64,000 nucleotides of DNA, taken from assembly GCF_018143015.1 (NCBI RefSeq), contig NC_054743.1, positions 35,403,243 through 35,467,242 of the forward strand, written 5' to 3'. The position numbers and the translations under genes were made by a program. This document shows positions 16,171 to 57,817 of the stretch, piece after piece; the first letter of the stretch is position 1, and every line of letters begins with the position of its first letter. The notes beneath the pieces were generated by a model. The model did not search any database, was not told where the DNA came from, and worked only from the letters and a program-made list of their open reading frames with translations. Source of the stretch: Lytechinus variegatus (taxonomy: Eukaryota).

Positions 16171-16417
16171 TAGGCCAGTGACGTATATAGGACCATATAA
16201 TACGTGTACGGGTAATTTTGGTTTCGTTCAGCAATTTTTCATCGCATTATTTCCTTGTTTAATATTTATTTAAGGCACATTTCATCAAAATCCCATGAAT
16301 AAATAAGTGATTATAATGTTTCTACGGACATATTTTACACACCCTCCCTAAACATAATCTATCACTGTCAGAGACTTGAGAACGGGTTGTAAAAATGTTC
16401 ATACGAATGCTTATTGT

Positions 16418-17208
16418 TAAAGGGGAAGTTCACCCTGAGAAAAGGTTTATTACAAAAATAGCAAGAAAATAATAACAAATACTGGCGAAGGTTTGAGAAG
16501 AAATCAATCACAGAATACAACAAAATTAATTAAAATGCTGATTATTTGATCTGTGACGTCATATGCGAACAGTTTTCTTAAATATCGTATGGTAAGAAAT
16601 CAATGAAATGTCTTTTTCTCACACAAATGACAATAATTTAGATTGTATCTTTAGAATATCAATACACAACTGATTTCACATCCGCTACTAAAAAGAAAAT
16701 TTAAAAAAAAGTCGTCACCAACCATTAAAAAGGGTAACATTTATGCATTTCATATTGCATACCGTATCTTCTGTGTATGTTCGCGGTTGTATGTTGTGGT
16801 ACTCCTTTTTGTGTTGGTGTGGGTTGAGATAGTGATGACCATGAATGTCCACGGCATGGGATAATAAGAAACGATTCTCTTTAATAATATACTTCTGATA
16901 ATGAGTCTTACTTTAGAGTACTTTAGTGTACTAGATCTAGCTTTAATCGATATTAATTTGACCCGTCAGATCGGGGTCTAGTAATCAACAAACAAGTTAA
17001 AATTTGCCTAAATTTAGAAGACTGGATAAACCGCTGTTTCGGAGAAGTTTGTAAAAAAAATATTTTCTGATCTTATGACGTCAAAAATCAAAAACTTGAA
17101 ATCCTAATAACTTTTAAAACCTTTAAATCACCATTATTTTCATATAATTTTTTCTGCTATTTTTACAACAAGGTTTTTGTCAGGGTGAACCTCCATTAAA
17201 AGGAAATT
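16418..17208. mobile_element. TTAA-flanked MITE, AGGGGAAGTTCACCCTG TIR family (carries TGACGTCA)
   Basis: ttaa|aggggaagttcaccctgag ... cagggtgaacctccat|taaa. Internal tgtgacgtcatatgcgaacag and tatgacgtcaaaaatc. Related copies at 36428-36900 and 38524-38935. Confidence 0.65.
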
Positions 17209-26090: not shown

Positions 26091-27280
26091 CAAAAAACAT
26101 AGACGGACAGAAAGATTATAAAATCAATAGAACTAGACATAAAGATGATAGGAAGAGGGAGAGAAAAAAGAATTGTGAAAGGAGAGGGAGAAAAAGAAGA
26201 AGGAAGAAAGTAAGAAGGGAAGAAGAACAAAAGAGGTGGTAGCTGCTAACACAGAAATGTTTGAGTTCTGGGTTTATACTCAAGGATAAAAATTTTCTTT
26301 AACCCTCGACTGATACTTAAATGTGTTGGTTTGTTACGTAATGATTCTATAAGGGAGTTCCATAGTTTGATACCTGTAAAAATAAATGTTTTATTCAAGA
26401 GGATTGTTCTAGCTCTTGATGGATTTTTAGTAAACATGGAATAAAAAATATTTGGAAGTTAATTTTTATCTAAACTATACATGAGTTTTCCGAGATTGCA
26501 TCGATACAAGTCACCAATCTTCAAAATATTATATTTATAGAAAAGTTTGTCAGTCTGTGAACGAAAATCAGCATGACAAACATGACAAATAATACGAATG
26601 TACTTTTCTGCAAAAGTAAAATTCTGTTCAGGAGGCAGTCAGCACAATCAACACTGTTTGTTGATAATGCTGTTGTTTTTTCAGTATTTTTTTAAATTTT
26701 AGTTGCCATGAATGATGATCTGACCGATATTACTTTTTTACGAGCCAAACATATACCAGAACTCTTTACGTCTGAAAATATGCTCAAGACGCTTGAGATC
26801 AAATCAGAGAAAGAAAAAAATAAATGCAGGTTCGAATTCTAAACAAATTCATAAATAGAATGACTGTCAAAACGCTCTTACACATGCAGGTATGTTTTCA
26901 GGTTGCCCCTGAAAGTGCACAGGAACAAGGAAATGCATAAAAATACATTAGGAAAGAAAATTATATTGTTTACGTACTGTGAAGTTATGTAAATCTACCG
27001 TTTTACTTAAGTGTGCAAAGTGGTAAAAATCAACGGGGGCCCCTATTTCTCACAGTGTAGCATAGTTTCTTTCATATTACCAGGGTCGGTTGAAACATTT
27101 TACCTCTTTCTTTCTATGACGTATTTGTCCTTCGTTGATTTGTACCACTACCCGCTATGAACAATACCCATAATCATGGACAAAACCTCTACATGATAAT
27201 TATTTCCTTCGTAATGTCAATTTTCCTTCTAACTATTTCGTAAATGATGTCCACTTCACTAATGAGACATAATCACATCA

Positions 27281-29345: not shown

Positions 29346-30229
29346 AAATATCCGTGTGCCGCTACTTTATACACACAATATATTGATTGTAATTTCATTC
29401 ATTCTCGGTATCCTTCGCCGAGATGTAAAATTGTAAAAAATGTATTGTAAAGGTTTTCCCCTCCAAAACGGATGAATGGTTGAAAATCCAAATTTTCTGG
29501 GGGCTTATCAGGCCTCCACACGACAAAACATCCTTTATGAGATTTCAAAGCAACTCGGACGATAATCAAACAAATCCCAGGCTAATGTGTGCTCCTGAGG
29601 GCATGAAGATGATATTGTGGTTAGATTTTTTTTGAAGCATTTAAAAAAAAATCTCATTTATCATACCTTTTGTCAATGTTCCAGCTTTCTTTTGCATGCT
29701 GCTTTTCGAACTTCCCTAGTCTCTTCAATATTTCCATTTCTCTTTGTTTGAAAAAAAAAAACATCAAAAGTATTTAAAGGTTAAAAGTTTCCCGGATTTC
29801 AGATATAAATCTCAAAGATTACTGAAAAGTGTATGGAAACCCATTTCGATCCCACGCGAACGTGACAGGATGCTACATATTTCATAGCTAGTTTGTGCAG
29901 GCCTTCAGAACTTCAAAAGGTTTGATAAATATCCGTCTGTGATTAATTGATCAACCTCTGTTGACGACATCGCCCACCGTCGCCGCCGCTTCCGTCGGAC
30001 AAGCAGACAAAGAATGAAATGGGGGAGTCGTCCAGGATGCCCATCCCTACACATGGAAGATGTTTTTAATAGAAAAATATATGTACAAAAAGTATGGATT
30101 CCTACATTTCTTGAAAAGAGGCATCCATGATAAAGATGAGTGTTCTCCTCTTCTATCTTTTCTTACTTTCTTTTCCCATTTTCTAACCCTTAACTTTTCA
30201 ATTCCGTTCACATCCTCTCTCCTTCCCCC

Positions 30230-30545
30230 ACCTCTCTCCCTCTCCCACACACATCCACTCTCTCCCTCTCTCACACACACACACACACAACCTCTCACAT
30301 ATTCACTCCCTCTCTCTCTCACACACACACACACACTCTCACACATCCACTCTCTCTCTCTCACACACACACAAACACATCCTCTCTCTCTCTTACACAC
30401 ACACACACACATCCACTCTCTCTCTTACACACACACACACACACATCCACTCTCTCTCTCTCTCACACACACACACATCCTCTCATACATCCACTCTCAC
30501 ACACACACACACACATCCTCTCACATATCCACTCTCTCACCCTCC
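30230..30545. repeat. Compound microsatellite (CT)n(CA)n
   Basis: ctctctctcacacacacacaca...atccactctctctctc repeated. The ORFs 30047-30412 and 30060-30590 are low-complexity artefacts. Confidence 0.9.
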
Positions 30546-30772
30546 CATTTATTTCTCACTCTCCCTTGTTATTTTTTCTTTTTCTTTTAAAATATCACAA
30601 CACACCCACCTATGCGCACCAAACCCACCCTATTTCCAATAGTGTATGCTTGTCAAAACACTATACAGATGGAAAGATAATCACTATATAATCCATACTA
30701 TAAGAAAATAAAGTCATTTGGAGTAATCAAAATTAGCAATTAATTTGTAATAGATATCTTCCATGCATGGCC

Positions 30773-33519: not shown

Positions 33520-34060
33520 AAGCATAGAAATAGCAGTGCCACCCCCCCTCCCTCCTTGAATTTTTCCGCGTACATTCGTAATCCCAAAGCTTCGTTATTC
33601 CGAAGGTTCGGATATTCCGAAGGTTCGGATATTCCTGAGGTTCGTATTTCCGAACGTTCGTAATTCCAAAGGTTCGTTAGTCTGAAAATGAAGTAGGGTT
33701 CGTAATGTCGAGGGTTCGTTAGTCCGAAAACGAAATGAGGTTCGTAATTCTGAAGGTTCGTTAGTCCGAAAACGAAAAGAGGTTCGTAATTCTGAAGGTT
33801 CATTAGTCTGAAAACGAAATGATGAACGAACTTTATTTCGTTTTAGGACTAGCGAACCTTCAGAACAACAAACCTTATTTCGCTTTAGAATTAACGAACC
33901 TCCGGAACAACGAACCTTATTTCGCTTTAGCATTAACGAACCTCCGGAACATCGAACCTTCGGAATAACACCACAAATGTTCGGATTGACGAACCCTTTT
34001 ACGTTTTTGGATTAACGAACATCGAGGTATAGGCAATTTACGTGTTTCGGAATTACGAAG
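33520..34060. mobile_element. Foldback element whose arms are tandem ~20-30-bp subrepeats (GGTTCGTAATTCCGAA units)
   Basis: Left arm 33590-33830 is tandem aggttcg(t/g)a(a/t)ttccgaa(a)(cgaaatg) units. Right arm 33830-34030 is the same units reverse-complemented (gaaccttatttcgctttagaattaacgaacctccggaac...). The centre lies near 33830. Confidence 0.7.
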
Positions 34061-34470: not shown

Positions 34471-34899
34471 TAGATTAAGTTTCAGTTTAGGTGCCATGCA
34501 TCTTCTTAGAAACACCCAAGTCTTTCCCAAAGAATTTTCTTTGCTTTCTAAAAAAGAAAGAAAAAAAAACCCAGACGCAAAGTGATTCATCGACCCACAA
34601 TTCAGTGCCAGATAGTTGCGTAGATTTAAAACATCATCACTTGACTTCCATAAGCATTCAGATTTGCAACATTCTTGAACAAGACTGGCTATACTTTCCT
34701 TTTTTTTTCTCCAAGAACCCATATTCCTCTCTCATACATTTATGATTTTTTTAAAACAAAATAGAACCCTTTCTTCAAGATCATATGATCACAAACATTT
34801 CTGAGTACTTCTTGGCTTGTACAGTTCAATACAAATCTTGGCATGCTGAGGTGTGGCAGAATGGAGACCTGGTCCTGGACCGGGTCCTGGTCCTATAGC

Positions 34900-35013
34900 T
34901 CATTGCTCATGCTTTCTCTTGGTCTTCTTAGGGTTCCTGGACCTACTCTTGGCCTTGCACAGAGGACAGATGGGAGCATTTCTGTGGATCTGCTGGTGGC
35001 ACGACAGACAGTT
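34900..35013 (-). CDS. ZC4H2: ZC4H2-like protein, coding exon 5 (terminal): [37 protein letters not shown]
   Basis: Acceptor cctctctctctttctag| is at 35014-35030 on the minus strand. The reading frame is phase 0 with exon 4. Stop TGA is at 34900-34902. The C-x2-C-x10-C-P-x-C-K motif and the basic tail match the C4H2 zinc-finger C-terminus of vertebrate ZC4H2 (...[41 protein letters not shown]...) as I recall it. Confidence 0.8.
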
Positions 35014-35698
35014 CTAGAAAGAGAGAGAGGAAAAAAATGAATGATGGCCGATACATCCACCTTTAAACCCTGGTATTTACAAGCATATTATTAACATTAC
35101 AGATGCTAACAGAGTATGAAATAAACTCATATTGAAGTTGAGCAAACTGATTCAAATCAGGTAGAAATGAATTAATGGAATTTAATGTTCATTCATTTCA
35201 GGAAAATGTCTACTAATACAGTAGGGCAGATTGGTTACTTAAGACATCATTAATCCATGAATTACACAGCTTTCAAAATGCCAAATAAATCTTCTTTTGG
35301 CTTCTTAAATTGGCAAAAACTCATGAATTTTCAATATATTTTCATATTTTTAAAGAAACAAAATACTTAAAAAAGAACAGATACAAGAGGACCCTTTGCA
35401 TGAAGCATAAAACTTTTGCTTTTGCCTGAGTTTTTTTATGGCAAAAGTTTTTGCAATGGGTCACAGATGTAGAGATTTATGATCAATGAATTAATTTATT
35501 GAAAAGTTGCCTATTTGTATTTTTAAGTAGAGATTTAATTGTTTCATTGCATTGCCAAAAAAATGCTATTTTACAGGCAACTTTATACTCAATGATCCAA
35601 TATACCATGAGTAAATATAAATATTTCATTTTGATCACAGAATGCGTACGTATATGAGCTAACTTGTTGCAAGGGTTTGATACAGAGGACAATCCTAC

Positions 35699-35903
35699 CT
35701 TCATGGGTGGTGGTTGCTGTTTGAAAGGGGGTGGAGGAGGAGGAAGGGGGCCGTTCATCTCCTTGGTGTGGCTGGTTCCTGGCATCTGAAGGGGTGTAGG
35801 GTGTTCCAGAGGTACGGGTAGGGGGCATGAAGTCGGGGTGAGGGGCGACGGGGGATCCCTCTTCTCTGTGTCGTGCCACTCTGCTCTTCTCTTCCTCAGG
35901 AGC
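35699..35903 (-). CDS. ZC4H2: ZC4H2-like protein, coding exon 4: (E)LLRKRRAEWHDTEKRDPPSPLTPTSCPLPVPLEHPTPLQMPGTSHTKEMNGPLPPPPPPFKQQPPPMK
   Basis: Acceptor ttgctgttacag|G and donor ATGAAG|gtagga. The exon begins with 1 nt (phase 1), completing GA|G from exon 3. The Pro-rich segment ending QQPPPMK directly precedes the zinc finger, as in vertebrate ZC4H2. The alternative overlapping frame (ORF 35589-35963) is not supported by splice phase. Confidence 0.75.
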
Positions 35904-36427
35904 CTGTAACAGCAAATGACGCATTTTACGATTGAAATTTCCACTCATTTCATTATTCAACAAACTACAAATTTACCGAGTCAATTTTTTGACAAATTCT
36001 CTGATCATCTTATTCACCTGTAAATATTGTAATTTGGTGTTCTCTTCATTATCTGTTAGTTGCATCTGCTTCAAAAGATTACATGATGCATTTACTTCTT
36101 TATTATACACACACAAATAAAAGGTCAATAATAATATGATAAATGATACCATGAAGCCATTAAAGTTGAGTTAAATATGTAGCATAAATACAAAGATACA
36201 ATGATATAAAAAAGAAGTATATGGTATCAATATGATTAAACTCTGTGAAAATAGAGAGGTCCATTTTTAAAGTGTCATACATTAGATATGCTCTTTTACA
36301 GTTCAATGAGGTTTTGCCTGTTCAGGGGTGGCCTAAGGGTAATTTGAAGGGGGGGGGGGATGGCCAAGTTAGCCTAAAAGTTGCATCATCCTTATGCCTC
36401 AGCCCATAATAGGTGATTGTCAGAGGC

Positions 36428-36900
36428 ATTAAAGGGGAAGTTCACCCTGGCAAAGAGTTTACGGTAAAAATAGCAGAAAAAAATAATGTAATATTGCCAA
36501 AGATTTGAGCAAAATCCATCATAGTATAAGAAATTCACTCATTTGATTTGTGATGTCATACATGTACATGTATGCGAGCAGCTTTCCTGCCTATCTATGA
36601 AATGTCATTTTCTCGGAAAACTGAAAATTGTTTTTACTGTACCTTCAACATAAAAATAGACAAATCATTTCACACCCCTGCCTATAAAAAAAGCAAAAAT
36701 AAATCCTCACGAATCATTACAAAAATTAAAATAATGCATTTTATATTACATAACATATGGGGCAGCTGCTCATTTATGACGTCACAAAAATTTAAATTTC
36801 TAATAACTTTATTAATCTTTAATTAATTTTCCTCAAACCTTCACCACTATTTTTTCTGCTATTTTTACAATATTTTCTTCAGGGTGAACTTCCCCTTTAA
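36428..36900. mobile_element. TTAA-flanked MITE, AGGGGAAGTTCACCCTG family (intron 3 of ZC4H2-like gene)
   Basis: ttaa|aggggaagttcaccctggcaaagag...tttatgacgtcacaaaaat...cagggtgaacttcccct|ttaa. Confidence 0.7.
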
Positions 36901-36929
36901 GTTTATAGATCATCCTTTCGTCTCGTGTA

Positions 36930-37102
36930 TACTACTTACTCTGGATCAAGTCTCCGGTCTTCCTCTGTAAGCTCTGGGATACGATCTAGTCCTATCGACA
37001 TTCTCTGGGCGTTGATTTGTTCTTTGAGGCAAACGTATTCCTGGTACATCTTCCAAGCTGCCTCAAACGCCTTGTTCCTGTCTCCCTCTGTGTTCTTTAT
37101 CA
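36930..37102 (-). CDS. ZC4H2: ZC4H2-like protein, coding exon 3: IESVIKNTEGDRNKAFEAAWKMYQEYVCLKEQINAQRMSIGLDRIPELTEEDRRLDP(E)
   Basis: Acceptor ctcttttcactctccctttaag|ATTGAG and donor CCAGA|gtaagtag. Only one of the three frames is open across the 173 nt. Predicted coiled-coil composition, similar to the middle of vertebrate ZC4H2. Confidence 0.75.
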
Positions 37103-37246
37103 CGCTCTCAATCTTAAAGGGAGAGTGAAAAGAGGGAGGGATGGACGCTGACGGAAGAAAGAAATAAACATTATATAAGTCTATGATGTTGATGATAATG
37201 ACAGCAATGCTATAATAATGATGTTGATGTTGATGACATCGATGAA

Positions 37247-37545
37247 GCGCCGTGGTGTAGCGGTTCTGACTCTAGCCTTGTAATCAGAGGGTTGTGTGTT
37301 CGAATCCCACCATGGCCTAGCGCCCTTTGGCAAGGCGTCAATCCACACTTTGCCACTCTCACCCAGGTGCTAATTGGGTACCGGTAGGACACAACGGTCA
37401 TTGTGGTTGGTTTAGCAAGTTTGCGCCTAACAGGCTGCTTGGAATGCTATGAATCCAGTGACCGGGTAATAATAATTGTAAAGCGCTTTGAACAGTCGTA
37501 GATTGATAAAGTGCTATATAAATGCCAATTATTATTACAATGATA
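37247..37545 (+). mobile_element. Composite tRNA-derived SINE (in intron 2 of ZC4H2-like gene), followed by a microsatellite
   Basis: tRNA-like head gccgtggtgtagcggttctgac...aatcagaggg...gtgttcgaatcccaccatggc. Central domain ...caaggcgtcaatccacactttgccactctcacccaggtgctaattgggtacc. Tail gtaaagcgctttgaacagtcgtagattgataaagtgctatataaatgccaattattatta. Same architecture as 63001-63290 and 49483-49800. Confidence 0.65.
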
Positions 37546-37980
37546 ATGAGGATGATAACGTTGATCACAATGGGTATTATGATAGTGATGAGATGATGAT
37601 GATCATGATCACTGCCATTATGATGATGTCAGCAATTTTCATGATAATGATGTTAATTATGATCATTATTCTCAATCCACTTTTCAGACTGATGATCACA
37701 AAGATAATGATAAAGGTGACGATACTGATTAAGGTGACAGATGGTGATGATGGTGGTGATGATGATGGTGATGATGAAGATGATGATAGTGATGATGGTG
37801 ATGATGGTGGTAGTTGTGATGATGATAATGATGATCATGATGATGGGGATGATGATGATGATGATGGATGGGGATAATGGTGATGATGATGATGGGGATG
37901 ATGATGATAATGATGATGACGATAACAATGATCGCTCAGTAATTATTTCCAAAACAATCATAATACACTTCACCAACTAA
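37546..37980. repeat. Microsatellite (ATG/GATGATGGT)n
   Basis: gatgatgatgatcatgatcactgcc...gatggtgatgatggtggtgatgatgatggtgatgatgaagatgatgat. The ORF-track peptides 37488-37877, 37653-37976 and 37741-37980 are artefacts. Confidence 0.9.
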
Positions 37981-38250
37981 CTTCGAAAGATACTGTTTAC
38001 TCTTTAGAAGAAGTGCATTGTGATCAATTTTTGTCTTGTTTTTCTCTTTAACTCTGCATTTGTATTATAGTTCGGCCATGCCTGACAAGCACCTGTTACT
38101 GGTCCCATTTACCATGTCTATTACATGCTTCATGTGTGTATCAAATTTTCCTGCAATTTTTTTTCATTGTATCCCTGATTGTTTCATTATAACCTGTAAA
38201 CATGTGAATACTGACAAATGAAATGAAATCAACGGGGAATTGTTACTCAC

Positions 38251-38422
38251 TGTGTTAATGTCTGAATGTATCTGTCTGAGTTCCTCTACGTGTGCCAGCC
38301 TCTCCTGGTTGAGCAGGTCCATCTCATGCCGATATTCCTTTAATCTATCCTCCTCCTTCTCGGCCTCCTGCATATCCACCAGGAGCCGACCCTTCATCTT
38401 CTCCAGGTGGACCGTCTGCGAC
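38251..38422 (-). CDS. ZC4H2: ZC4H2-like protein, coding exon 2: (R)SQTVHLEKMKGRLLVDMQEAEKEEDRLKEYRHEMDLLNQERLAHVEELRQIHSDINT
   Basis: Acceptor ccctcggtttccag|GTCGCAG and donor AACACA|gtgagtaac. The run EYRHEMDLLNQERLAHVEELRQIHSDIN parallels vertebrate ZC4H2 ([31 protein letters not shown]) as I recall it. Confidence 0.8.
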
Positions 38423-38523
38423 CTGGAAACCGAGGGATTATGGAAAAGAAAAATCATTATTCTTCCTCAATAGAAAATACCTCCATTTATCATACTATTC
38501 AGACTATGCAGTTTCTTAACCCC

Positions 38524-38935
38524 AGACTATCCTTAAAGGGGAAAGCTCAGTCTGTTGTAAAATTAGCAGACAAAATATTGGTGAAGGTTTGAAATATAAT
38601 CCATTAAATATTAAGAAAGTTATTAGAAATTCAAGTTTTTGATTTGTGACAACGTTAACGAGCAGCTGCTTCATATATATACACTATAGAATACATATTT
38701 CATTTTTTAATGTGATGACTTATTCTTAATCTTCTTTTTAGCAGCAAGTGTGAAATGATTTGGGTATCGATATACTGAATGTACAATAAAAACATTTTAA
38801 ATTGATTTTTTTACCATACGATACGTACGAAAGAAGCTTGCATATGACGTCACAAATCATATAATTAAAATTCTAACAACTTTTTTTTTATTTGTCAGCT
38901 TTTTGTCAGGTTGAACTTCCCTTTTAAATTCACAT
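38524..38935. mobile_element. TTAA-flanked MITE, AGGGGAA(A)G...CACC family (intron 1)
   Basis: ttaa|aggggaaagctcagtctg...tatgacgtcacaaatc...gtcaggttgaacttccctt|ttaa. Confidence 0.6.
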
Positions 38936-39221
38936 TTCCTCTTATTTTGTTGCAATTTGCTAGGCTAGGGTTAAGAAACAAACAAGATTCACTGTCTATC
39001 TAAATGTGTTTTCCGTGAAGGGGGGGGGGGGGGGCGGAAGCACATCATCAACATTACAGAAATGTTTAAGAACATTGAAACTTTAAAAAAACGGCATTAA
39101 TGGAAAGAAGAGAAAGGTCCATTTTGACTCAAAGATGAAAGCAAGATCAGAAGAGCTGCCACATTCGCCATGCATTTCAGCCCATTTCTCTAAAGCCACC
39201 TTATGGTACATATTGCTTATA

Positions 39222-39865
39222 CTTAACGGGCAAGTCAACCCCAAGTTATCAAAATGTGGATTTGAATAAGAAAATGTAAAGAAAAACAATCAAACAAGCA
39301 TAACACTGGAAATTTTATCAGGTTATCAAATTTCAAAAATTTGCTACTTTTCAGAGAGCAGTTATAGGCACAATGGTGAAATGCAAATGAAAGAGCCACA
39401 AACTATTTAATTTGGTTTCCACTTAATAATAATAAATATTTCAATATTCTCCAATTTCACAATGAGGAACCAACTTCATAGAACCACAATAAAGTTGCAA
39501 CAATTGCAATCCAACATATCAAAGGAGGAATCAAAATCCGATATGTCACCTTATTTACTGGGTGCCATCCAGATATTGTGTACAGATTCAAACCTTGTTT
39601 CACATCATGATGAAAAAAAGAAGATTTTTTCATATCTCACATGACAAAATAGTGGGTGAGTGATATGATATTATCACTTCCCTCATTTGCATACCGATCA
39701 AGATGTGATTAACTGTTTTGTGAAATCGAGCAAAATTCTACAATGTCATAACTCTACATTCCACATCCAATATTGATGAAATTTTCAGGTTTATGTTGTT
39801 TGATTTTCCTCTTGTCATTCATTTATCAAACCAATTTTTTTGTTGGGGAGGACTTGTCGTTTGAA
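39222..39865. mobile_element. Foldback element, TGATGACGTCATC family (diverged copy)
   Basis: ttaa|cgggcaagtcaaccccaagttatcaaaatgtggatttgaataagaaaatgtaaag...ggtgaaatgcaaatgaaagag on the left. The right arm is ...catttgcataccgatcaagatgtgattaactgttttgtgaaatcgagcaaaattctacaatgtcataactc...gttggggaggacttgtcg. Confidence 0.65.
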
Positions 39866-40423
39866 GTTTATTTAAGTTCTGATAAATCAATCCCCTACTC
39901 TCCAAAGTGCAGGTCAATATTCCAATTAATCACTTGATTATATGAGTTTGTATGCCCGATAACAGTTATGATATGAATGAAAGGAAAAAAATGTGTTTCA
40001 TTGAACAAATTGTTAGAGTTTACATTAAGATACTTTTAGAATGGGTGCCAGATCAAATAAAAATATCTTCATATTTTTCTATTTTGATATAAAACCTAGA
40101 CTCAAAATTATTGAGTGGGTTGAAAAAATCTGGATACAACATTCGTCTAAAGCTTTTGAATTTTCCCTTTTTTTAAGAAAATATAAACATTGTGGAAAGA
40201 GAGAGAGATAAAAAAGAAAAATATAAATTATAAAATATAATATAATATTTATGAATTTTCAAAAAGAACTATTAATGGTTGAAACAGATTGAAAAGACAA
40301 TACACTTTTGCATTTTATTGCAATGCTATGTGTTTGATAATTCATGTAAACGACCTTTCAACAAAGAGCTTTAAAGCAAACTACATAGTTGAGAATAAGT
40401 AGTAGTTCTATCAGGTTTGAATT

Positions 40424-40474
40424 TTTAACTTTGTACATTTTCAACTGGAATAATTACCAGTTGAAAATGTACAA
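40424..40474. repeat. Perfect hairpin (22-bp arms)
   Basis: aactttgtacattttcaactgg aataatta ccagttgaaaatgtacaaagtt. Confidence 0.7.
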
Positions 40475-42097
40475 AGTTAAAATCTGTCATTGCTTTGATA
40501 GATAGTCTGGGCCCTGGGGTAATTGGTTTTAAAATGCTTAACAATCAAAGAAATAAATATTGAATATTTAGCAGAATCAATAAATGAAAATATCGTGTGA
40601 AATACATGAGCAGTATCTTTCGTCGGTATGCACATGTATGTCATGTAAGCATTTTTATACATACTTTTGCATTTTTGTACAATGATCATTGATTTGATTT
40701 TAATACAATAGATGGAAATCAAACCAAAGTACAAATTTGATTAAGATTTTGATTGTGGAAATTCAATAAATTCATTCATTCATTCATTCTTAGAATTCAT
40801 TCATTCATTCAAATATTGAGGTAAAACAGATATGTAAAAGGAAAGATCCACTCCTTTTAATAGCAATATTCTTTTACAATTTTGAAAGGACTATTGAAAG
40901 GACTATGATTAATTACCATCAAGTGCATTTTATAAGTATGTTACCTGTTAGAATAAGAAAAAAATTATTTTGTATTGTAGCCTACAATGCCCCAATGGAT
41001 CTAACAAAACAATAATAGCAGGCTTGTATCTCTTGTATCAGAAATGTGAAATTTATTGTTTTTACAATAAGCAAATGCCAGGGGAAAGGGGTCTCAAATT
41101 ACAAAACAGAAGATGTTGAGTAGTGTAAGACAATATTTTTCTCTCTTATTATTTCAATTTTGTTCAGTAATCTTTTCTAAATGACCATTTGAAAATAAAT
41201 CAAAATGTAGTACATGTATTACTCCATTTTAAAGAATTATGGATGAACACAAAAACTTTGAATCTTTACACTGGCTGTTGTAATTCTATGGACTACAATT
41301 ATGGAAAAGTCCATAATTCAATTTTTTTAAAAATGAATATTAAAAAAAGAATTAAATTTTACAGTTGAACAATTTCTTAATCTCATTTAAAGTTTGCAAA
41401 AATGTAAATAAATGTAAAAAAAAAATACACAAATACACATCCAGTCAAGAAACTGGCTCATTAAAGCCTGAAGTTTTAGCAACTCCCCAGCAAAATGTCT
41501 GTCACTATTCCATTGATTAGTCAATGATGAAAAATTATTTCATTGTACACTGTAATAAATGTATGCGCTTTGGGCCTCATGGGAAATGCGCCGTATATTA
41601 ATATGAACATGGAGGTATACCCTACAAGTATGATGTGGAGGACACTTGTTTAAAAATGGATGTAATTAGATAATTATGAAGTTTACATTCATTGGGGGTG
41701 GTTTTGTGCCCTATAAAAATAAAATATCTGCACATTTTGTTCTCTCTCTCTTTTGATGTAAAAATCAATTCCTGTAGCATGTGGAAATTTCAGGATATTT
41801 CCTGCTATGTCATCATCAAAATTACTTTAAAAAAACAAGTAATCAAAATGCCATTTTTAAAGAAAAAAAAACTAAATCAACCAAGAGAGTGAGCTAGAAA
41901 AAAAGGAAGAAACATTCAACAAAGAAATTAACAGATTAACAAAATTAAGGGTAATACACTATTGTATGATTGCATGCAATTCATGTTATTGACCCACTAT
42001 AGTCTACATCACTGAAGTTTTTAGAGAGACTTTAAAAAAAGACTTTTAAAATAGAATATGTATAATACTAAATAGGTTCATTATTGCGGATTGAAAT

Positions 42098-42315
42098 AAT
42101 CGCTAGAGGGTATTCATTTGTCTCGCAATCTACTATGGTCAACAAGGAAATTCGTGATCACTCTTGCAAAGCTCGTGAACTTGTAAGCTAGTGAACACTT
42201 TTTGCGAGAGTGATCACGAATTTCCTAGAAAGCCAGTGAACACTTTTTGCGAGAGTGATCACGAATTTCCTTGTTGACCATAGTAGATTGCGAGACAAAT
42301 GAATACCCTCTAGCG
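42098..42315. mobile_element. MITE with ~65-bp TIRs and an internal tandem duplication
   Basis: aatcgctagagggtattcatttgtctcgcaatctactatggtcaacaaggaaattcgtgatcactct...(cactttttgcgagagtgatcacgaatttcc x2)...ttgttgaccatagtagattgcgagacaaatgaataccctctagcgatt. Confidence 0.75.
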
Positions 42316-43529
42316 ATTAAGAATATGTATGTACGCAAAGTGTGAATCAAAACATTAAAAATAAAACATAATACATATTATTACCTACATGTATACAAGG
42401 CATTTTAGCAGATAAATAAATGTCATATTTCCCTTGCTACTTTTCAATTCAAGACCAACAGGGTTAACAAGTGCCATGTTGCTCTTTCCAGGAAACATCA
42501 CTTGCCCTTTAATAAAAGAACCATATTGCCCTCGTCTAAGACTCGGGCCATTATCATTCTGTTGCGGGCAACAGTAAAAAAAAAAACACTGCACGTAAAG
42601 GCCAGTCACATATGCTTAAATTTCAAAATACATGTGATAAAAACAAGTTTCACAAATGGACTTTCATGAAAAATCATCCATGAATTATCATGTTTCAGAT
42701 CTATGCAAGTGATTACAAAATAAATGATAACAAAATATATACAATTATAAAAAGATGGGCTGCAAGTATGGAAGTTGAAATAAAAGCACTTTGTTTTGTG
42801 AATTAAAAGTCATTTATTTTCATTTCCTTTCTGTCAGATTAATTTTACCAAAACATTTTAAAGCTAACAGAATATTTTATCAAACAATGGTCCTTCTCCT
42901 TGGTTTTCTTTTCACATTTGGTAGTGAACATTTTCTTTTCTTACAATAACCCGAATACAAAAGGCATTGTTGCGATCCGCCAGACCAAACAAATTACATG
43001 TATAATAGATAGTGGGCATTATTTGTATATGTAAAAGTGTCTTTGATAATAACAACCAATTACTCGAGTGTTGACCGAATAATGCTTGAAAAGGGACAGT
43101 ATGCATCCAAGTCTCTGCTGTTTTTGCACGAAGAACAAACATCAGTCACTCGATTAAATTCAAATAAGGAATCATTCATATGACAGTATTTTATTTCAGT
43201 ATTCTATACAGCATTTTAAACCCCTCAAAAAAAGTTTTGCAACTCATTTTTGGGGGATGATATCTTTTTGGTTAATGAAGTATAAAAGATGAAACTGGTA
43301 TCATTGGAAAGCTGAATTATTCTTCTTTACAATGACATGCCATTTGCTGTGATTATGTAATCATGGAATATGCAATCACCCTGAACATCGAGAAAAGTCA
43401 GAAGTGAAATGTTGCAAAATGCATTGATTTCCAAAAAGAGTCTCCATTTCTATAGAATTTCCACCATGCAGGTGACAGTGAATGCACTCGGTCCATCCTC
43501 GAAACAATTGGAAATTCGCTATTGCAAAC

Positions 43530-43925
43530 GACGCATTTTGCAACATTTCATGTCTAACATTGCTGTGTATTATCATGTCTGTGTATTTCATGATAACACT
43601 AGCATTACAAATGACACATGATTGTAAAGAAGAATAATCATGCTTTCTAAAGATATCACTTTTACACATGATGATGGCACATTAAGAAATTTATTAGCAC
43701 TCAAACTTGCAGTTTGAGTTGCAGAACTCAAACATGACATGGCAACGAATTTTGCAACATTTCATTTTTTACATTGCTGCATATTTATCATGTCTGTGTA
43801 TTTCATGATAACACTAGCATTACGAATGACACATGATCGTAAAGAGAAATAATCATACTTTCCAATGATACCACTTTTACATATGATGATGGCACACTAA
43901 GAAATTTATTAGCACTCAAACTTGT
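43530..43925. repeat. Tandem duplication, ~220-bp unit x 2
   Basis: ttgcaacatttcat.t.taacattgctg.at.ttatcatgtctgtgtatttcatgataacactagcattac.aatgacacatgat.gtaaaga.aataatcat.ctttc.aa.gata.cacttttaca.atgatgatggcaca.taagaaatttattagcactcaaacttg occurs twice, with ~90% identity. Confidence 0.75.
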
Positions 43926-44678
43926 GTTGCGGAACTTATTTTGAGGGGTTTATATTGAAACCATCTCGTACTTTCAATCCATAGTTGACCGAACATGAAT
44001 CAGAAAATATGAAAACCATGGGATATTCTTTCTTTGAATTATACTCTCTGTTTCCATTCGATGGGGCTGTAACATTGTTTCACTTTATTTTTTCAGAAAC
44101 ACACTTTAAATATGAGAACATCCTTACTTCATTTCATGAATTAAAAGTAATGCTCATGTATGGTAATGCTCATGTATGATGGATGTAAGCTGTTCGATTC
44201 ATGACATTGGATTCTAAAGGTATTAGACTGCTCTTCCAACTTTGGTATAGCATTATAGTTTGAATAGCTCTGCATGTATATCCCACAATATTGAAGGAAA
44301 TTAATCTTTTATATTAAAATGTTGAAATTCAAAATCTGAGAGGAATATAGCATCTTCAAGGAAAATGTTGTTGACAAAACATATACATGTAGCTTTCATA
44401 CACCGTCCCTTTTATACGAAAAATTGTATCATTTTTTCACTTTCATTTTGAGATCATTCTAGGCTGATAATGTGCAATATCAAAATTAACAACAGTTATT
44501 GAAACCAACTTTGAAAAATAAATAATTGGGGAATGATTACACAATAAGCAGTTGTTAGCATTCCGTTTCATTCAAAATGTTTTTCTTTCTTTCGAAGATT
44601 TGGGGTAAATAAAAATCTCATCTTGACTCCAAATTTATTGACGATAATATACTCTCAAAGCTGTTGAAAGTCACTTAC

Positions 44679-44710
44679 CTTAGAACATTTTCCAGCAAAT
44701 GGATACTCAT
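44679..44710 (-). CDS. ZC4H2: ZC4H2-like protein, coding exon 1: MSIHLLENVL(R), start codon at 44708-44710
   Basis: The minus strand reads aacagg ATG AGT ATC CAT TTG CTG GAA AAT GTT CTA AG|gtaagtgactttcaacag. An in-frame TGA lies 12 codons upstream. There is A at -3. Ending on 2 nt (AG) joins with G of exon 2 to give Arg. It loosely parallels the vertebrate N-terminus ...KLESIKEIR|NKT. Confidence 0.6.
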
Positions 44711-45500
44711 CCTGTTTCCTCCTATTAATAACAGTTTCAAATATCAGATAACCCCTCCTCAAAATTGTCCTAAAACTATGCAACAGTTGTCCTAAAACTA
44801 TGCAACAGTTGTCCAAAAACTTGCAGCAATAACAGAGGGTATATACATGTAAAGGACCATATAAGAATGGCTAATAGTCACAGAAGAAGTTGTCCTGTAT
44901 AAAAGTAGTGCAACATTGGTCCAAAACTTGCCACAAAATGGGTAGATAATGGGAAAAGACGATTGCTAATCGTAGGGGAGGGCCTCAAATGAGTTGTCCA
45001 AAACATGCATCAAAGGGATAGGATAGAGGAGCAAGATAATGACAAGTCAGAGAAGAGGAGGTCCCTTAAAAAGCATGGCAAGAGTGGTCCGTAATTGCAG
45101 CAAGAGGGATAGCTCAGACAATGACTCTTCATGGGAAAAAAGAGGTGGATGCAATTCATAAGATCCAAGTTTGCAGACACCATCCACGACGAGCGAGGGA
45201 GCCGCCTTCTTGATCGCGCCGGAGCAGTGGATAAAATGAGCAATCTTGGTCAATGCAATCACTAATCGACCCTACTTGAATAGAGCTCAGCTGCTGCATG
45301 CCCCGATTGTTGGCTAAAGTGCTGGAGTCTTTTGTGTTCGCGTGTCTTGTCTGCTAGACCATGAACATGGGTAGCATAGTGTCTCAGACGCAGTAAAGGG
45401 GGAGGGGCCTATCGGAAACAAATTTGGCTGGCTGGCTGGCAAGCCAATCCTTCACCTTCCCCCTTCTCTCTCTATTTGTCTTCCCCCTCACTCTCTTGCT
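44711..45500 (-). promoter_or_regulatory. Putative promoter / 5' region of the ZC4H2-like gene (locally CpG- and GC-enriched, CT-rich tract, CCAAT)
   Basis: 45170-45420 holds cgacgagcgagggagccgccttcttgatcgcgccggagcag, gttcgcgtgtc and gacgcagtaaaggggg, unusually CpG-dense for this window. caagccaatcc is at 45438. A polypyrimidine block is at 45440-45530. No TSS can be assigned from sequence alone. Confidence 0.3.
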
Positions 45501-45667: not shown

Positions 45668-46861
45668 CCCGCCCTCCTTCTCTTTACAGTACTTAACAAT
45701 TTCAGTTAAGTGTTTATAGCCAAGAAAAGATGATCAAAGTACATTTTATTGTATATTTAAGACTCACTTAAATTCATCAAGTAAAAAAATAAAATCTGTT
45801 TCATTTGAAAGAAGATATGCATTATGCAATACATATTATCTACATGTATGTATTTGTCTCAAAATCATACAGTTTTTCATTTCAAAATATTGAAAAAAAA
45901 TATTGATTGTGACATTTGAAATGAGTAATATTTGACAAATAAGGCCCTAATGGCAGACTTGCACGCAATATACAGGAGAACAGAAAACATAAAGGACCTA
46001 ATGATAATAAAAATATTAATACAATTTGCCCTATGAAATCAGACAATCACACTATCTATAACTTACTAATACAGATAAAATGACACTAGCAACAAATTTC
46101 AAGCACCCATGATACTAATACAATCTAGAATTGTCCTTAAGAAAATGAAAGAAGAGATAAAAGAGTGAGGGAAAGGGGAACGATGACAGTTTGATCTATC
46201 CGAGGATAATCTGATACTGGCTGGGAGCCGACGGGTTAATACGGGGCAACAGGAGGCTCGCTTCCCAAATCACTGAGCAGGGACGGATAAAATGCCCCCA
46301 ATCAGGCTGTTAACACCTCCATCAATTATTCAGGCCGGAGGCAAGCTACCAACCACCGAGCATTATCTGGCAACAAATCCCTATACTCCGTCATTCTTTG
46401 GTGTCTTCCAAGCTACCTTATAGCTCTCCCCGGGTGCGTTTATCATCTCTTTTCTGCGGTAAAAAGAATCACGTTTTCAAAACGTGTTTTGAGGTTCTTT
46501 TTGCAGATATGATATTAAATGCAAAGGTGTTTTGATTGTTGCCGATTGGGCTTGTAAAGACTTTTCGGATTGCACAAATTTGTGTGAATTTTAATATTTA
46601 TGTCCGAGCCTGAAATATTAATCTACAATGCTGCATAAGGGACAAACGCAAAGTTGTATTGAAATGCAGTTGAACTTCCATCACTTCTGCCCATTTCAGG
46701 TTCCAGAGTATAAACTGACCCACAATTCAAACTGATTTGAGAAGACAAGAAAGAGAATATTTAGAGGTTGACAAATAAAATTCAGCAAGAAATTTTATAA
46801 GACACAGATCATATGTAAGATAGAGAAAAGGATATATTGATACATAAAGATGCTCTACTTT

Positions 46862-48188: not shown

Positions 48189-49482
48189 TCACATCTCAGA
48201 CACAGCATGGAGGTGGACGCATGTAATATATAGACCATTGACCTATAACACAGCTCAGATTTATTATAAATTAAATCACTGTCAACCCTTGATTTTCTGG
48301 AAGGCACATCAGATAACAAGTCAGACATAAAAATCAAGCCATTAATTAGATTGTCTCATCAAGGAGCTGAACTAGACCATGGTGAGAAAATCAAACAGAA
48401 GAACTGGGATTAAAGGGAGATTAGCAGGTCTATGAAAGAGGGGATTGATTAACACAAGGAGTGCAGGTGTGAACAACCAATTGACTCCTACAAAGAGGGG
48501 TAAAGAGAGGGTGAAGATAGGGTGTATAGAGGGGTTAACATTAACAATAGTCCTTTCAAGAATAAACTTTATACATTCTGGATTTGGGGGAAATGGAGGA
48601 GGGTATTGCACCAGCAGTTACATAAAACAGAGACATGAAAGGGAGATTAGTCTACATGTCTGTGCACCTGTAATTATGTTGTGTGTGTAGTATGCACTGA
48701 AGATTAGACGTTGACAAAGACTACAGGCAGATGACATTTCTTTAATGATCTTTAAGGAGAGTTGTGAAACTAGATTTTAAATTGTATTTTCAATTCAATT
48801 CATTCAATTATGTGTTATACTATTATTGCATTTTTAAACATAATATGTTTTATTTCTTTAATGGTCACTGCATGTTATGTATTTATTTATTTTCCCTGTT
48901 ATGTGTTTTTTTTATTGTAAACTCACATTGTTAGTCTTCAGACTTTTTGCTGAGTATTGTTGAATAAAACCAAATTGAATTTGAATTTTCTAAGGAAGAT
49001 ATGAAAAGAATGAAGAATTCCTAAATTCAAATGCAACAGTCATTACTCAATTCATGACAGATGAATCTTTCCATATCAGGAGTGATGAAGTGATGAAACA
49101 ATTATTGAGCAGTGCTAGATTCGTACCCTTTTCTTATCACCTTTTTTTAATCATGGCAGGATGCATACCCTTTTTAATTTTTTTTAATTACAACTTAAGA
49201 AATATGAACTACCATAATCAATTAATAGTTTGAAGAATGTCAATTAACTTTATACCACAACTCAATGGTTAAAACTTTTAAGGTGACTTTGCATTTACCT
49301 GTAAAAATATGACTAAGGTATGAAAGTGAAAAAACAACCATAATCACTGATTTTGAAATTAGAAATATCACTACAAAAGGGCTTCATGAATATTAACCCA
49401 AAGATATACATGTACAGTGCCTCCTTTTGGAAACATTTTATGTATCTAAATTGTCTCCGTCAGGAGACATTTTGCAGTTCAT

Positions 49483-49800
49483 TTAAGTGCAGCATGTGGG
49501 GCTGTTTCTGAATAATAATAAATAAAAAATAACATAGCATTTGTATCGTGCACATACCCACCTTGCTCAAGGCGCTCCTATATTACCAGGCTATTAAAGC
49601 TAGTCTACCGAATCCGGTGCTTACATCTTTTTTCTGAGGAATTACTTCCTGCCGGCAACCATTTACCTCACCTGGGTTGAGTGCAGCACGATGTGGGTAA
49701 ATTCCTTGCTGAAGGAAAACATGCCATGGCTGGGAATTGAACCCACGTCCCTCATATTGAAAGATTAAAGTCTTAACCAATAGACCACAATGCCCCCGAT
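49483..49800 (-). mobile_element. Composite tRNA-derived SINE (minus orientation)
   Basis: The reverse complement reads ggggcattgtggtctattggttaagac...gagggacgtgggttcaattcccagccatggcatgttttccttcagcaaggaatttacccacatcgtgctgcactcaacccaggtgaggtaaatgg...gagcgccttgagcaaggtggg...(ATT/ATA)n. It is ~85% identical to 63001-63140. The ORF 49583-49843 is an artefact of this element. Confidence 0.7.
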
Positions 49801-50629
49801 AGAATAAAAGCCATCGAACTTGAGCTTTAAAATCATTACACACTCAAAACTGGCAATGCTATGAAAATAACAAACTCACTGTAAAAATGCAAATTGGCAT
49901 CTTTAGGGTAAACTAATATTCTTTTATCATTAAATTTGATGATGTCATATTACTAGGAAATATTTATTCAAAATATGAAAATATATTTTTTTCAATTCAA
50001 TGATATTTGCCATATTGAGGAGCAAATAAGATTGATTTTGACTTTGAGAAAGCTTAGTAGCTCTACTGCATAAAGCACTCTTGTTCTCCACCAATCCAGA
50101 CAGATGCAATGAGCATTCATGCATAGGTTGAATGAGACTCAATGAAGCAAGCTCCTCTCACTGAGCGGCAGTCTCTTAAAGTAAACACTGACGGTTTCAC
50201 ACACAAAAAAAACAACAACGCAAAACCTGGGAAAAATTGAGGATTTCAAACTAAATTAAAATCTGATTGCTGTTCTCTTTGTTACAGTTAGTCAAAGCAG
50301 TGATTATGTTTTATGTCAGCATATACAGCACTCCCTTTGCAGTGGGAGTACTGCTGATACCCATATTGACATCCGCCGGTTTTCTGGTCCTGTCGGCAAT
50401 CTCGCCCCCTCTCTTTCTCCCCTTCTCTTTCTACTGTGGGAATTCAACAAGTGTTATGTGGGCCTTTTGCATGTAGTGTTTTCTTTTCTCCGTCCTGCAA
50501 CTTGCTGTACTGTAAGTTGGCTGGTTAAATTACAAAATAATTAAAAGCTCATATCAAAGTCTCTCATAAGTTTTGGTAATTCCCTAGGGTTGGTTATGAC
50601 TCATAGTTTCAGTTAATTACTTCATTTAG

Positions 50630-54976: not shown

Positions 54977-57817
54977 TATTAGAGAAAGATCAACCTCCAT
55001 GTATTAAAAATAAGGGACTTTTCCCAATTCTGACTATAGACTGTTGCGTTGTCATTACTGTGTATCGTCTGTTGTTTTTGGTGGAAAATTTTGTACAGAG
55101 GCTTTACCGATTCCTACAGAATCCAAGCATTATCCCGCCTGAAAAATTGTGTCACGGTTGAGGCGGGATGGCAGGCTTGGTCTCCAGAGGGCGGGGGATA
55201 CAATCCAATTTTCTTAATCTCTATCTACCCATGGCCACTCCCAAAGGGGACCGTGGCAAAATGGCATACTGGATGCCGACGGCGAAAGTGCAGTCTTAAG
55301 TTGCTCTTTTCTCTCTCACTCCTTGTCAAGTGGTGGGAGTACTTGCGACTGAAGAGACATAGTAGAGATGATGTTAAATGGAGAGGAGATGATGCCCTAT
55401 AATCGAAAAGAAATAATTGCCTCACCACTCCTATTACATCCTCCCGACGATCTAGCATTGAGCAGAGGAGAAACGGAAAACCATCCCTGCCAGATCGTGT
55501 TCAACTCCCGGACCCTTACTTGTTTGGTTATTCAAAAGGCATTCTGCGGTGTTGATGCTCTTGCTCGGAGAGCCATTTATTTCTTCCTGCGAGCGGGCAA
55601 GACAACTCTACGAGGGAGTAATTTAAGACATTTGCACAGAAATGCCAGATAATTAACATCTTGATTGAAAATGTGTATCTGGGGAAGGCGAGATGTTATC
55701 TTGTTGATGGCGGAACGATTTCATTTGCGCTGTGTTGTTCCTTGTCGGTTTGTGTGGTTCTGGCAGGCCATTAGATCTTAATGCCATCGGCAAGAATACA
55801 ATGGGCAAGCAAGTGAACTATTCCATCAAACGGTCTCTGTTTGTCCAAAAACGGTGCAAAGAAATGTCCCAAGGGAACGATCATATGCAAAATAGAAGAG
55901 ATAAAAGAAAGGGTTTCCTGAGAAGGACATAAAGAAGAGAGCTACCTCTCTTGATGGATGGGTCTCATTTGCCAGTAAAAATGAAAAATATCAAATATAC
56001 ATCTTAGAGACTTGAAGGGAGAGAAGATTTGGTTAAAGACCAGAACAAAGAGAATAAGGGGAAAAGAAGAGTTACTTGTGGCCGGGAAGTGTCGGTCGTT
56101 TGCATCTGGGTTAACAGGATCTGTAAGACTATGCGTAAGAAGTTAATTTCTTCCTCGGGCAAAGCGGATTTGGAAAACAAGACTTTGGTTTGATGCGCCG
56201 AACCTGACACTAAAGAGACAAGCAGCGACAGCGTTTCGAGGTGGATCTTAAGAGCTCGCTAGAGAGGACAGGTAACAAGACAAAAGCAAAGGAAAAAAGT
56301 TTTGATCAGCGAAAAGGCGAAAATGGTGAAAACACAAGAGTTTACTTGGAGAAGAAAAAGTTTAAACATTCAGGAGTGAAGAACGTGGCAGAATGAGGTC
56401 ACACAGAAATAGGGATAGGCCATCTCATTTTTGAGGAAATTTGGGAAGAATAAATATCACTCAACAAAATATCAACAAAAACAGAAAGGCATGGAGAAGT
56501 GTCGATGCCTCGGTGGGATCCCTCTTTTTGATCTAGGAAGCTCATGAGGGGCAGTATTCATTTTTTTTTTCACAACAAACAGAACTTGTTGCTTTTTGAC
56601 ATATTTGAAGACATGAAGAGTTCCTTTTTTTCAACACAAAACTAATACACCCATCAAAGTCAAGATGAAATAGTGTTTCATGATAGATCTACAAGTGCAC
56701 ACATATTATAAACGAACCAACAAATATTCAAATGAAAATGTGTTACAACAGAGATTTCAAAAATCAACCATGATTCTGCAGAACTTCCTTTGAAAACTCA
56801 ACTTTTCCTGCATTTCATTATATAGATCTATACCACCTTTTTTGAGGAAGGAAAAGAAATTATGCCATTCAAGGAACTGCAGTATGGAGGTCTCTTTCAA
56901 CTTTTATAATGGATTTGAATCCAAAGCAGCTAGGTATTAGATCACTGCAGTAATTGGTGTACAGGACACAGGCTCGTTGCTGCACTATCACAAACGACAA
57001 CAAAACTTTCTGCAGAAACGGCCTTCGAAACTCACTCTTTCTCAGCATTTCATGTTTGCATTTTAAAACATTCATTCATTGGGATGTCAACTCTTGGAAA
57101 AGGTTTAACTGCTCTGCTACTGTACATGAAGAAATCATTGCAAGCACTTTCTATTATTTTTTCTCTCTCTATATAGCATCTGGATTAAAAAATGATTTTT
57201 TTTTAAAATCTGCTTCAATACCCAGCCCATAAAAAAAGGAGTTTTGATTGTTTTAAACATCCCACATAATATTCCAGAAAAAAATATTACCAGCAAGAAA
57301 GTACGTAAGAAAAAATAGATTTGCACTATATATTTTTTTGCATAATTTTAATATACATTTTTGTAATACCAATATGTTAGTACAATTAGTACAACTCATC
57401 TTACAAAAAACAGAACAATTTCAGCTAAACAATGAGATAGCATCTCCTCCTTCCCCCTTCTCATTACTTTACAATTAATTTTGTAATTGAATTGAATCGA
57501 CCCCTTTGATAATCATAATTATCATCTCTTGTACTGTATTTATATCGTTTCCCTGTATAATGCATGTTTAGAACATATAACCTGGGCTTAATGTTGTAAT
57601 TGTTTTCCCTTTTTTATCAATAAAAGGTGATCTAGTTATATATATAAAAAGAAAATTACTTTTGCAGTGATTTCTCAAAGGTCATAGGGACATTTTATAC
57701 TGCACACAATATATGAAAGCAAGTTACAAGACCTTTTTTAGTGTGATTCAAAAAATATATTATTCATTTGCTTCTATATGAATGCAAGTCTTATAGCTGA
57801 CTCCTATATCTTAAAGG

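Follow-up and report, generated by a model that had tools for sequence, protein, structure and literature searches.

The ZC4H2 gene and its counterpart in Lytechinus variegatus

ZC4H2 is the gene of ZARD/Wieacker-Wolff syndrome in humans (Q9NQZ6) and belongs to the family of proteins that carry the C4H2-type zinc finger. In vertebrates, as studied in mouse and zebrafish, the protein is known to bind and stabilise the RING E3 ligase RNF220, and it is needed for the normal ubiquitination of Gli and for ventral patterning in the spinal cord (PMC7288745). Interactions with SMAD, TRPV4 and RLIM have also been reported (summarised in PMC12383448). A coiled coil is assigned by UniProt to residues 11-104 of the human protein, and the zinc-finger peptide has been solved by nuclear magnetic resonance (NMR) as PDB 9p3z. 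It adopts a RANBP2-like fold, in which four Cys residues bind Zn with picomolar affinity and two His residues do not (PMC12383448). Outside the ZC4H2 orthologs, the closest C4H2 zinc-finger homolog is VAB-23 of C. elegans, which is also the source of the zinc-finger annotation of the family (PMC12383448). Among the sea urchins, Zc4h2 of Strongylocentrotus purpuratus (LOC575413) was flagged in a single-cell study as a candidate transcription factor of the oral-ectoderm lineage, with lineage-specific accessible elements nearby (bioRxiv 10.1101/2025.08.12.669999). The present work concerns a stretch of 64,000 nucleotides of the Lytechinus variegatus genome (contig NC_054743.1, positions 35,403,243 to 35,467,242), referred to here as the window, and the ZC4H2 gene found on its minus strand between positions 34900 and 44710.

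The explanation that best accounts for the whole of the evidence, and that is held with very high confidence, is that this locus holds most of the ZC4H2 ortholog of the green sea urchin L. variegatus, a probable single-copy gene, with at least two alternative first coding exons and a likely adaptor role by homology. A further proposal, which is favoured with clearly less assurance, is that the first coding exon found in the window has been under purifying selection since before the split of Diadema and the camarodonts, and that isoform- or lineage-specific expression may be driven by a non-coding element of roughly 1 kb within the same long intron.

When the minus-strand segments 44710-44679, 38422-38251, 37112-36940, 35903-35699 and 35013-34900 are concatenated and translated, an open reading frame (ORF) of 231 amino acids is obtained, and the phases chain from exon to exon as 2+1, 0/0, 2+1 and 0/0. 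Exons 2 to 5, joined without the ATG exon, form a continuous frame of 220 amino acids, to which the ATG exon adds another 11. This alternative first coding exon (44679-44710, 32 nt) reads ATG AGT ATC CAT TTG CTG GAA AAT GTT CTA AG/gtaagt, where the slash marks the splice junction, and codes for MSIHLLENVL plus two bases of a split Arg codon. Coding exon 2 (38251-38422, 172 nt; phase 2 in, 0 out; tttccag/G TCG CAG...AAC ACA/gtgagt) gives (R)SQTVHLEKMKG...IHSDINT, the first half of a long helix. It is followed by exon 3 (36940-37112, 173 nt; phase 0 in, 2 out; tttaag/ATT GAG...CCA GA/gtaagt), with the product IESVIKNTEG...RRLDP(E), and by exon 4 (35699-35903, 205 nt; gttacag/G CTC CTG...ATG AAG/gtagga), which codes for a Pro-rich, low-complexity linker with FKQQPPPMK at its C-terminal end. 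Exon 5 (34900-35013, 114 nt, that is, 111 nt and the TGA at 34902-34900; tttctag/AAC TGT...CAA TGA) codes for the zinc finger and the basic tail. The G+C content is 47-60% in the exons as against 30-38% in the introns.

Five exons had been proposed for this gene in an earlier note, which was made from the sequence alone. The AG acceptors and GT donors that it described for 38251-38422, 35699-35903 and 34900-35013, and for the ATG exon at 44679-44710, are indeed read on the sequence. Its third exon was placed at 37102-36930, where stops occur in all three frames (5, 2 and 1) and the concatenation breaks the ORF; the true exon has the same length of 173 nt, and the shift of 10 nt restores the frame. 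The phases thus chain into an ORF of 220 amino acids, as had been stated, but only after this shift and not with 37102-36930. Likewise, the statement that each exon is open in exactly one frame is correct for exon 2 and the corrected exon 3, while exons 4 and 5 have two open frames each. The strings quoted from the C-terminus and the coiled coil are present in the translated sequence, and the vertebrate C-terminus that the note gave agrees with a database ZC4H2 sequence. It was also claimed that the ORF track misses the gene entirely. This is not quite accurate, as a 153-amino-acid ORF with a GTG start (35483-35944) spans exon 4 in frame. Overall, the sequence-only reconstruction of the exons was accurate apart from the one coordinate slip of 10 nt.

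Support for the junctions comes from a spliced S. purpuratus transcript contig (Logan SRR31798688; L002), in which the introns present at the genomic locus of that species (L001) are missing. The contig aligns with the minus strand of the window in four blocks, in which its positions 112-285 match 38424-38251 (exon 2), 286-458 match 37112-36940 (corrected exon 3), 460-654 match 35902-35699 (exon 4) and 653-877 match 35015-34800 (exon 5 and the start of the 3' untranslated region, UTR). Because the four blocks abut, the three internal junctions, including those of the corrected exon 3, are confirmed. The earlier note had named other junctions in transcripts, for example no splice from 35699 to 35013, as a ground for refuting its model; this S. 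purpuratus contig supports that join. As the alignment runs on to 34800, the start of the 3' UTR can be placed at 34800-34899 on the minus strand. Over about 1 kb 3' of the stop codon, as far as 33837, no AATAAA or ATTAAA was found. The interval 33575-33960, about 1 kb 3' of the stop, is taken up by tandem arrays whose periods are 42 bp and 16-17 bp, and these possibly lie in the 3' UTR.

The identity of the product is clear. It is 100% identical, throughout its 231 residues, to XP_041462878.1, the zinc finger C4H2 domain-containing protein-like isoform X2 of L. variegatus. The other isoform, X1 (XP_041462877.1), has exons 2-5 in common with the window, and its first coding exon lies outside it. 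Because this gene model, together with the exact isoform X2, is already annotated in RefSeq, the gene call itself adds nothing new. A protein database search at E <= 1e-10 returned 674 matches, of which the best 120 were examined. All 120 carry zf-C4H2, those named by their source are ZC4H2 proteins, and there is one ZC4H2 gene per species among these best 120 of 674 matches. Against the Pfam family zf-C4H2 (PF10146; gathering cut-off 34.5 bits), the product scores 243.4 bits (E = 6.3e-72) over profile positions 5-240 of 240, and the four-exon core scores 239.1 bits (E = 1.3e-70). The search that the earlier note had suggested for the spliced coding sequence therefore returns ZC4H2 proteins at its top, with the L. 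variegatus record at 100% identity.

The intron positions point in the same direction. The ZC4H2 proteins of sardine and amphioxus were mapped exactly onto their own genomic loci. In Sardina pilchardus, the coding exons measure 53, 172, 173, 163 and 114 nt, and in Branchiostoma lanceolatum 56, 172, 173, 160 and 114 nt; those of the window measure 32 (the alternative exon), 172, 173, 205 and 114 nt. The phases are 2, 0, 2 and 0 in all three. The four introns of the urchin and the sardine thus have the same positions and phases. The junctions fall at matching sites in the three genes, namely IR/x, DIN(x)/, the split codon that precedes (Y/L)(F/L)xK, and PPPMK/. Among exons 2 to 5, the linker exon 4 is the sole one of variable length. 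As the lengths of 172, 173 and 114 nt are common to echinoderm, amphioxus and vertebrate, the five-exon structure most likely predates the split of these lineages from their common ancestor. The Pfam match, the database matches and the intron positions all agree, and they support the identification, first made in the earlier note, of the spliced product as a ZC4H2 ortholog.

Two first coding exons and a probable selected N-terminus

A family N-terminal motif, (K/R)(L/M)xx(I/L)K(E/D)IR, is found in S. purpuratus X1, Diadema, sea stars, a brittle star, a crinoid, hemichordates, amphioxus and sardine. The first exon in the window lacks it and has MSIHLLENVLR instead. This is a trait of the isoform and leaves the membership of the gene unaffected; in L. 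variegatus, the motif is supplied by X1, which begins MGSDDTHEILNKMTNLKDIR. The canonical exon was not found in the 64-kb window, either by a regular expression for the motif, by exact six-frame searches for MGSDDTHEILNKMTNLKDIR and its substrings, or by permissive tblastn with the N-termini of S. purpuratus, Diadema, Patiria and L. variegatus X1. In S. purpuratus, this exon is found upstream of both the alternative exon, at a distance of 15.4 kb, and exon 2, at 20.1 kb. Upstream of its own alternative exon, the window has 19.3 kb of sequence, and the outermost collinear block there (63882-63777) matches a position that lies, in S. purpuratus, 3.8 kb downstream of exon 1. Since the exon is absent from the window and the collinear block stops 3.8 kb short of it, the canonical exon should lie a few kb past position 64000. 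From this collinearity, a match to MGSDDTHEILNKMTNLKDI is expected beyond 64000 on the minus strand, followed by AG/GT.

The MSIHLLENVLR exon joins exon 2 at the split Arg codon (AG/G), which is the same codon as that used by the canonical exon. It is also annotated in L. pictus, as the sole isoform there, and in S. purpuratus X3, and the annotated X2 of Diadema antillarum begins with MSFHLLDNVLR. Between L. variegatus and S. purpuratus, 5 of the 32 positions differ, and L. pictus adds one more. All six of these changes among the three species are synonymous. The expected synonymous share of random single-base changes is about 21%, so that P, estimated naively, is about 1e-4, and transition bias would raise it somewhat. 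Further, the similarity among the three is lost a few bases beyond the edges of the 32-nt ORF and its donor, and Lytechinus and Strongylocentrotus both have a purine at -3 of the ATG. The lineages of Diadema and the camarodonts separated more than 200 million years ago. Diadema keeps the ATG, the length of 32 nt, the reading phase and the AG/GTAAG donor. The first intron of its locus (L004) holds two exon-like units, at 26203-26235 and 26528-26560, which are 325 nt apart, and each has an ATG, 32 nt and AG/GTAAGG. They code for MSFHLLDNVLR and MNMKSLENILR, and only the downstream MSFHLLDNVLR is annotated. In the sea star Patiria, no alternative exon of this kind was found. It is concluded from these sequence comparisons that MSIHLLENVLR would be a genuine, selected alternative N-terminus, specific to echinoids as far as tested. 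The earlier note was right that the ATG exon at 44679-44710 supplies the required 2-nt phase, and the exon matches X2; it is an alternative exon, to which the first exon of vertebrates is not homologous. Neither this isoform nor the conserved intronic element described below has an apparent published description in the searchable literature, the isoform itself being present in RefSeq.

Use of the alternative exon would exchange the first 20 residues of the helix for a shorter helical start of 11 residues. The X2 transcript is presumably made from a separate promoter of its own, and X1 and X2 may differ in function. A 22-bp tandem repeat, TTGTCCTAAAACTATGCAACAG, is present in 2.8 copies at 44765-44825, that is, 55-115 nt upstream of the alternative ATG.

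Some observations weigh against this account of the locus. The use of the alternative exon is suggested by gene-prediction models and by its evolutionary signature, and such models may in part have been carried over from species to species by homology. The sole spliced contig that was recovered (L002) carries the canonical exon, and none was recovered with the alternative one. The sources of the alternative-isoform proteins are NCBI, UniRef and nr only; a Logan source is given for the canonical isoform of S. purpuratus and for none of them. Finally, the AlphaFold2 model shows the zinc finger as low-confidence helices (predicted local distance difference test score, pLDDT, of 55-59), unlike the hairpins of the NMR structure; being helical and of low confidence, this part of the model was not used.

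The transcript and source data would fit a reading in which the MSIHLLENVLR exon is never translated as an N-terminus. It might be an artefact of annotation or a non-coding 5' exon, the real protein being the canonical one only. The peptide also adds almost nothing to the Pfam match, which starts at profile position 5 as compared to 1 for X1. This reading is nevertheless considered improbable. A non-coding exon is at odds with six synonymous differences out of six in three species and with conservation that is restricted to the ORF and its donor, and also with the retention of the ATG, the 32 nt, the phase and the donor in Diadema. The purine at -3 and the annotation of L. pictus with this isoform alone also speak against it.

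Another possibility is that the sequence is a cassette micro-exon of 33 nt (aaacag/G ATG), which is spliced in frame between the canonical exon 1 and exon 2, so that MSIHLLENVLR is inserted after ...KDIR. Both L. variegatus (cagG ATG) and S. purpuratus (cagA ATG) do have a CAG directly 5' of the ATG, and an insertion of 33 nt would preserve the frame and regenerate Arg at both junctions (AG/G or AG/A). The 20 nt 5' of this CAG are, on the other hand, purine-rich in both species and contain no polypyrimidine tract, and in Diadema it is gcaag, and not CAG, that precedes the ATG. The protein clusters, with lengths of 224-240 amino acids, also include no isoform of about 251 amino acids. A cassette is considered less probable still than an untranslated exon. 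That the whole locus is a non-functional copy of ZC4H2, either a pseudogene or an assembly duplicate, can be set aside almost entirely. Nothing was seen in its favour, and against it, the ORF is intact, the splice sites are all canonical, the ancestral intron positions are kept, L. pictus, S. purpuratus and Diadema have collinear loci, and the exons are 78-88% identical to those of S. purpuratus while the introns are mostly unalignable.

Conserved block, mobile elements and neighbouring features

In addition to the selected alternative exon, the long first intron of the canonical isoform contains a conserved non-coding block at 55007-56359, with a core at about 55360-56245. It is collinear with S. 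purpuratus and 83% identical to it over 1383 nt. Overall, the coding exons show a similar level, and 94-98% is reached in parts of the core. About 800 nt of the block align with Diadema at 77-85% identity, and one run of 75 nt (55704-55630) is without any difference among four echinoids. No such block was found in the sea star Patiria. A coding or RNA-gene reading of the block was rejected, as its indels are not multiples of three, its mismatches show no codon periodicity, and it has no long shared ORF and no Rfam match. The block is a probable cis-regulatory module. If this is true, the element with the 75 identical nucleotides may drive isoform- or lineage-specific expression, for example in the oral ectoderm.

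Smaller blocks that are conserved and collinear with intron 1 of S. purpuratus were also seen at 45232-45440, 48315-48511, 50099-50162 and 63777-63882, and one at 46127-46408 is inverted. The first of these, at a distance of 0.5-0.7 kb upstream, could be the promoter of the alternative exon. The selected alternative N-terminus and the deeply conserved intronic element are the only parts of the locus that are possibly worth a follow-up; they offer two testable features, in a tractable embryo, for a human neurodevelopmental disease gene.

Mobile elements are found in introns 2 and 3. Intron 3 contains a miniature inverted-repeat transposable element (MITE) of 472 bp at 36429-36900, with perfect 21-bp terminal inverted repeats (TTAAAGGGGAAGTTCACCCTG) starting with TTAA. 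Related copies occur in the window at 16417-16767, 17073-17194 and 38555-38798. The intron-3 element is present at the orthologous site of L. pictus (L003 17094-17567, 81% identity) and absent at the S. purpuratus locus. As it is common to both Lytechinus species and absent from S. purpuratus, it was inserted between two events, the split of Lytechinus from Strongylocentrotus and the later divergence of the two Lytechinus species.

Intron 2 holds a tRNA-derived short interspersed element (SINE) of about 290 nt at approximately 37244-37533 on the plus strand, antisense to the gene, with an A/B-box-like head and an ATT-rich tail. The call is made from a reading of the sequence and from the L. 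pictus intron, in which the site is empty exactly at the position of the SINE. ARAGORN reported no tRNA in the window, and Rfam misses the head of this SINE. S. purpuratus also lacks the element, and since the orthologous site of L. pictus is empty, the insertion is specific to L. variegatus. The SINE is adjoined by an imperfect (GAT/ATC)n microsatellite at 37576-37932, for which Tandem Repeats Finder gives a period of 3 and 61 copies at 37740-37923, together with neighbouring arrays. The earlier description of a SINE and a microsatellite in intron 2 and of a TTAA MITE in intron 3 is thus borne out by the sequence and by the comparison with L. pictus and S. purpuratus. The idea that the gene helps in dating these elements also works, by way of the orthologous sites in the two species.

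More copies of tRNA-derived SINEs were seen in the window at 49500-49800 (minus strand), 6251-6475 (plus strand) and 63010-63074. The one at 49722-49794 gives the sole Rfam match in the window that exceeds the threshold (tRNA, 33.1 bits). A non-orthologous copy in intron 4 of S. purpuratus ZC4H2 has 92% identity to the one at 6251-6475, and the SINE family is therefore common to both genera.

In intron 1, a hairpin at 40423-40482 has a perfect stem of 26 bp and a loop of 8 nt. It was tried as a mir-153 homolog and rejected, as it scores 39.7 bits against a gathering threshold of 54, and both strands as well as several unrelated microRNA models match equally. The hairpin has no conserved counterpart in S. 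purpuratus and probably represents a small foldback repeat. The same intron contains an inverted repeat of 74 nt at 42097-42319, which is 99% complementary with a spacer of 75 nt, and, at 43217-43957, a tandem duplication of 215 bp (43531-43924) inside longer inverted repeats. Both are likely foldback or MITE-type elements.

Away from the gene, an intronless ORF of 369 amino acids at 4058-5167 on the minus strand has a rhodopsin-family G-protein-coupled receptor domain (Pfam 7tm_1, E = 7.6e-30) and probably represents a neighbouring receptor gene with a single exon. Spurious ORFs of 121-176 amino acids arise on both strands from a long, imperfect tract of low complexity at 30047-30590, which is rich in (TG/CA).

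Protein architecture and comparison with known ZC4H2 genes

The AlphaFold2 model of the window's product predicts one continuous helix over residues 3-108, with a mean pLDDT of 86 at residues 1-10 and of 92-98 at residues 11-110. Residues 3-11, which come from the alternative exon, fall in the same predicted helix as the rest of the N-terminal domain. This helix is predicted to be able to form a coiled coil. The linker coded by exon 4 is predicted to be disordered (pLDDT 46-65). Next comes the zinc finger, CX2C-X10-CX2C, which reads C196-x2-C199-H200-x3-H204-x5-C210-x2-C213 and whose Cys and His residues are invariant in 44 homologs. Residues 193-219 are identical to the human zinc-finger peptide PDB 9p3z at 26 of 27 positions; by this identity, the fold and the Zn ligation of the urchin finger would be those of the human peptide. 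The basic C-terminal tail, which overlaps the zinc finger, is present and nearly invariant in the alignment, and it is a putative nuclear localisation signal (residues 207-224 in human).

By homology, the urchin protein would most likely act as a non-enzymatic adaptor and stabiliser of RNF220. Such stabilisation would tune ubiquitin-dependent signalling, for example the Gli/Hedgehog output. A literature search found no urchin data on the role of RNF220 co-factor.

In comparison with human and other vertebrate ZC4H2 proteins, the urchin protein has the same order of coiled coil, linker, C4 zinc finger and basic tail, and the identity is roughly 49%, as taken from the hit table. The linker exon is Pro-rich and longer in the urchin (205 nt), whereas that of vertebrates is Ala-rich (163 nt in sardine). 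The urchin has Asn at 195 where human has Ala, and its tail reads KKTKRK in place of the human KKPKRK.

The nearer relative, S. purpuratus Zc4h2, with isoforms X1-X3, is 94% identical to the product of the window. Its gene is collinear, with the canonical exon 1 followed by the conserved non-coding block, the alternative exon and exons 2-5. A difference is seen at exon 2. In S. purpuratus (L001 29684-30262), the acceptor region and the first 83 nt of this exon are present in five tandem copies with a period of 124 nt, as against one copy in the window. These tandem copies explain the N-terminus of the S. purpuratus isoform X2, MIVFISVNLLVSR.

Vertebrate ZC4H2 genes, too, have alternative first exons. 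These are unrelated to that of the urchin and use the same splice codon, as in MTKR/RNKT and MCMWNEF/RSKT. From such sequences, the gain of alternative first exons at this one Arg codon is a recurrent event in ZC4H2.

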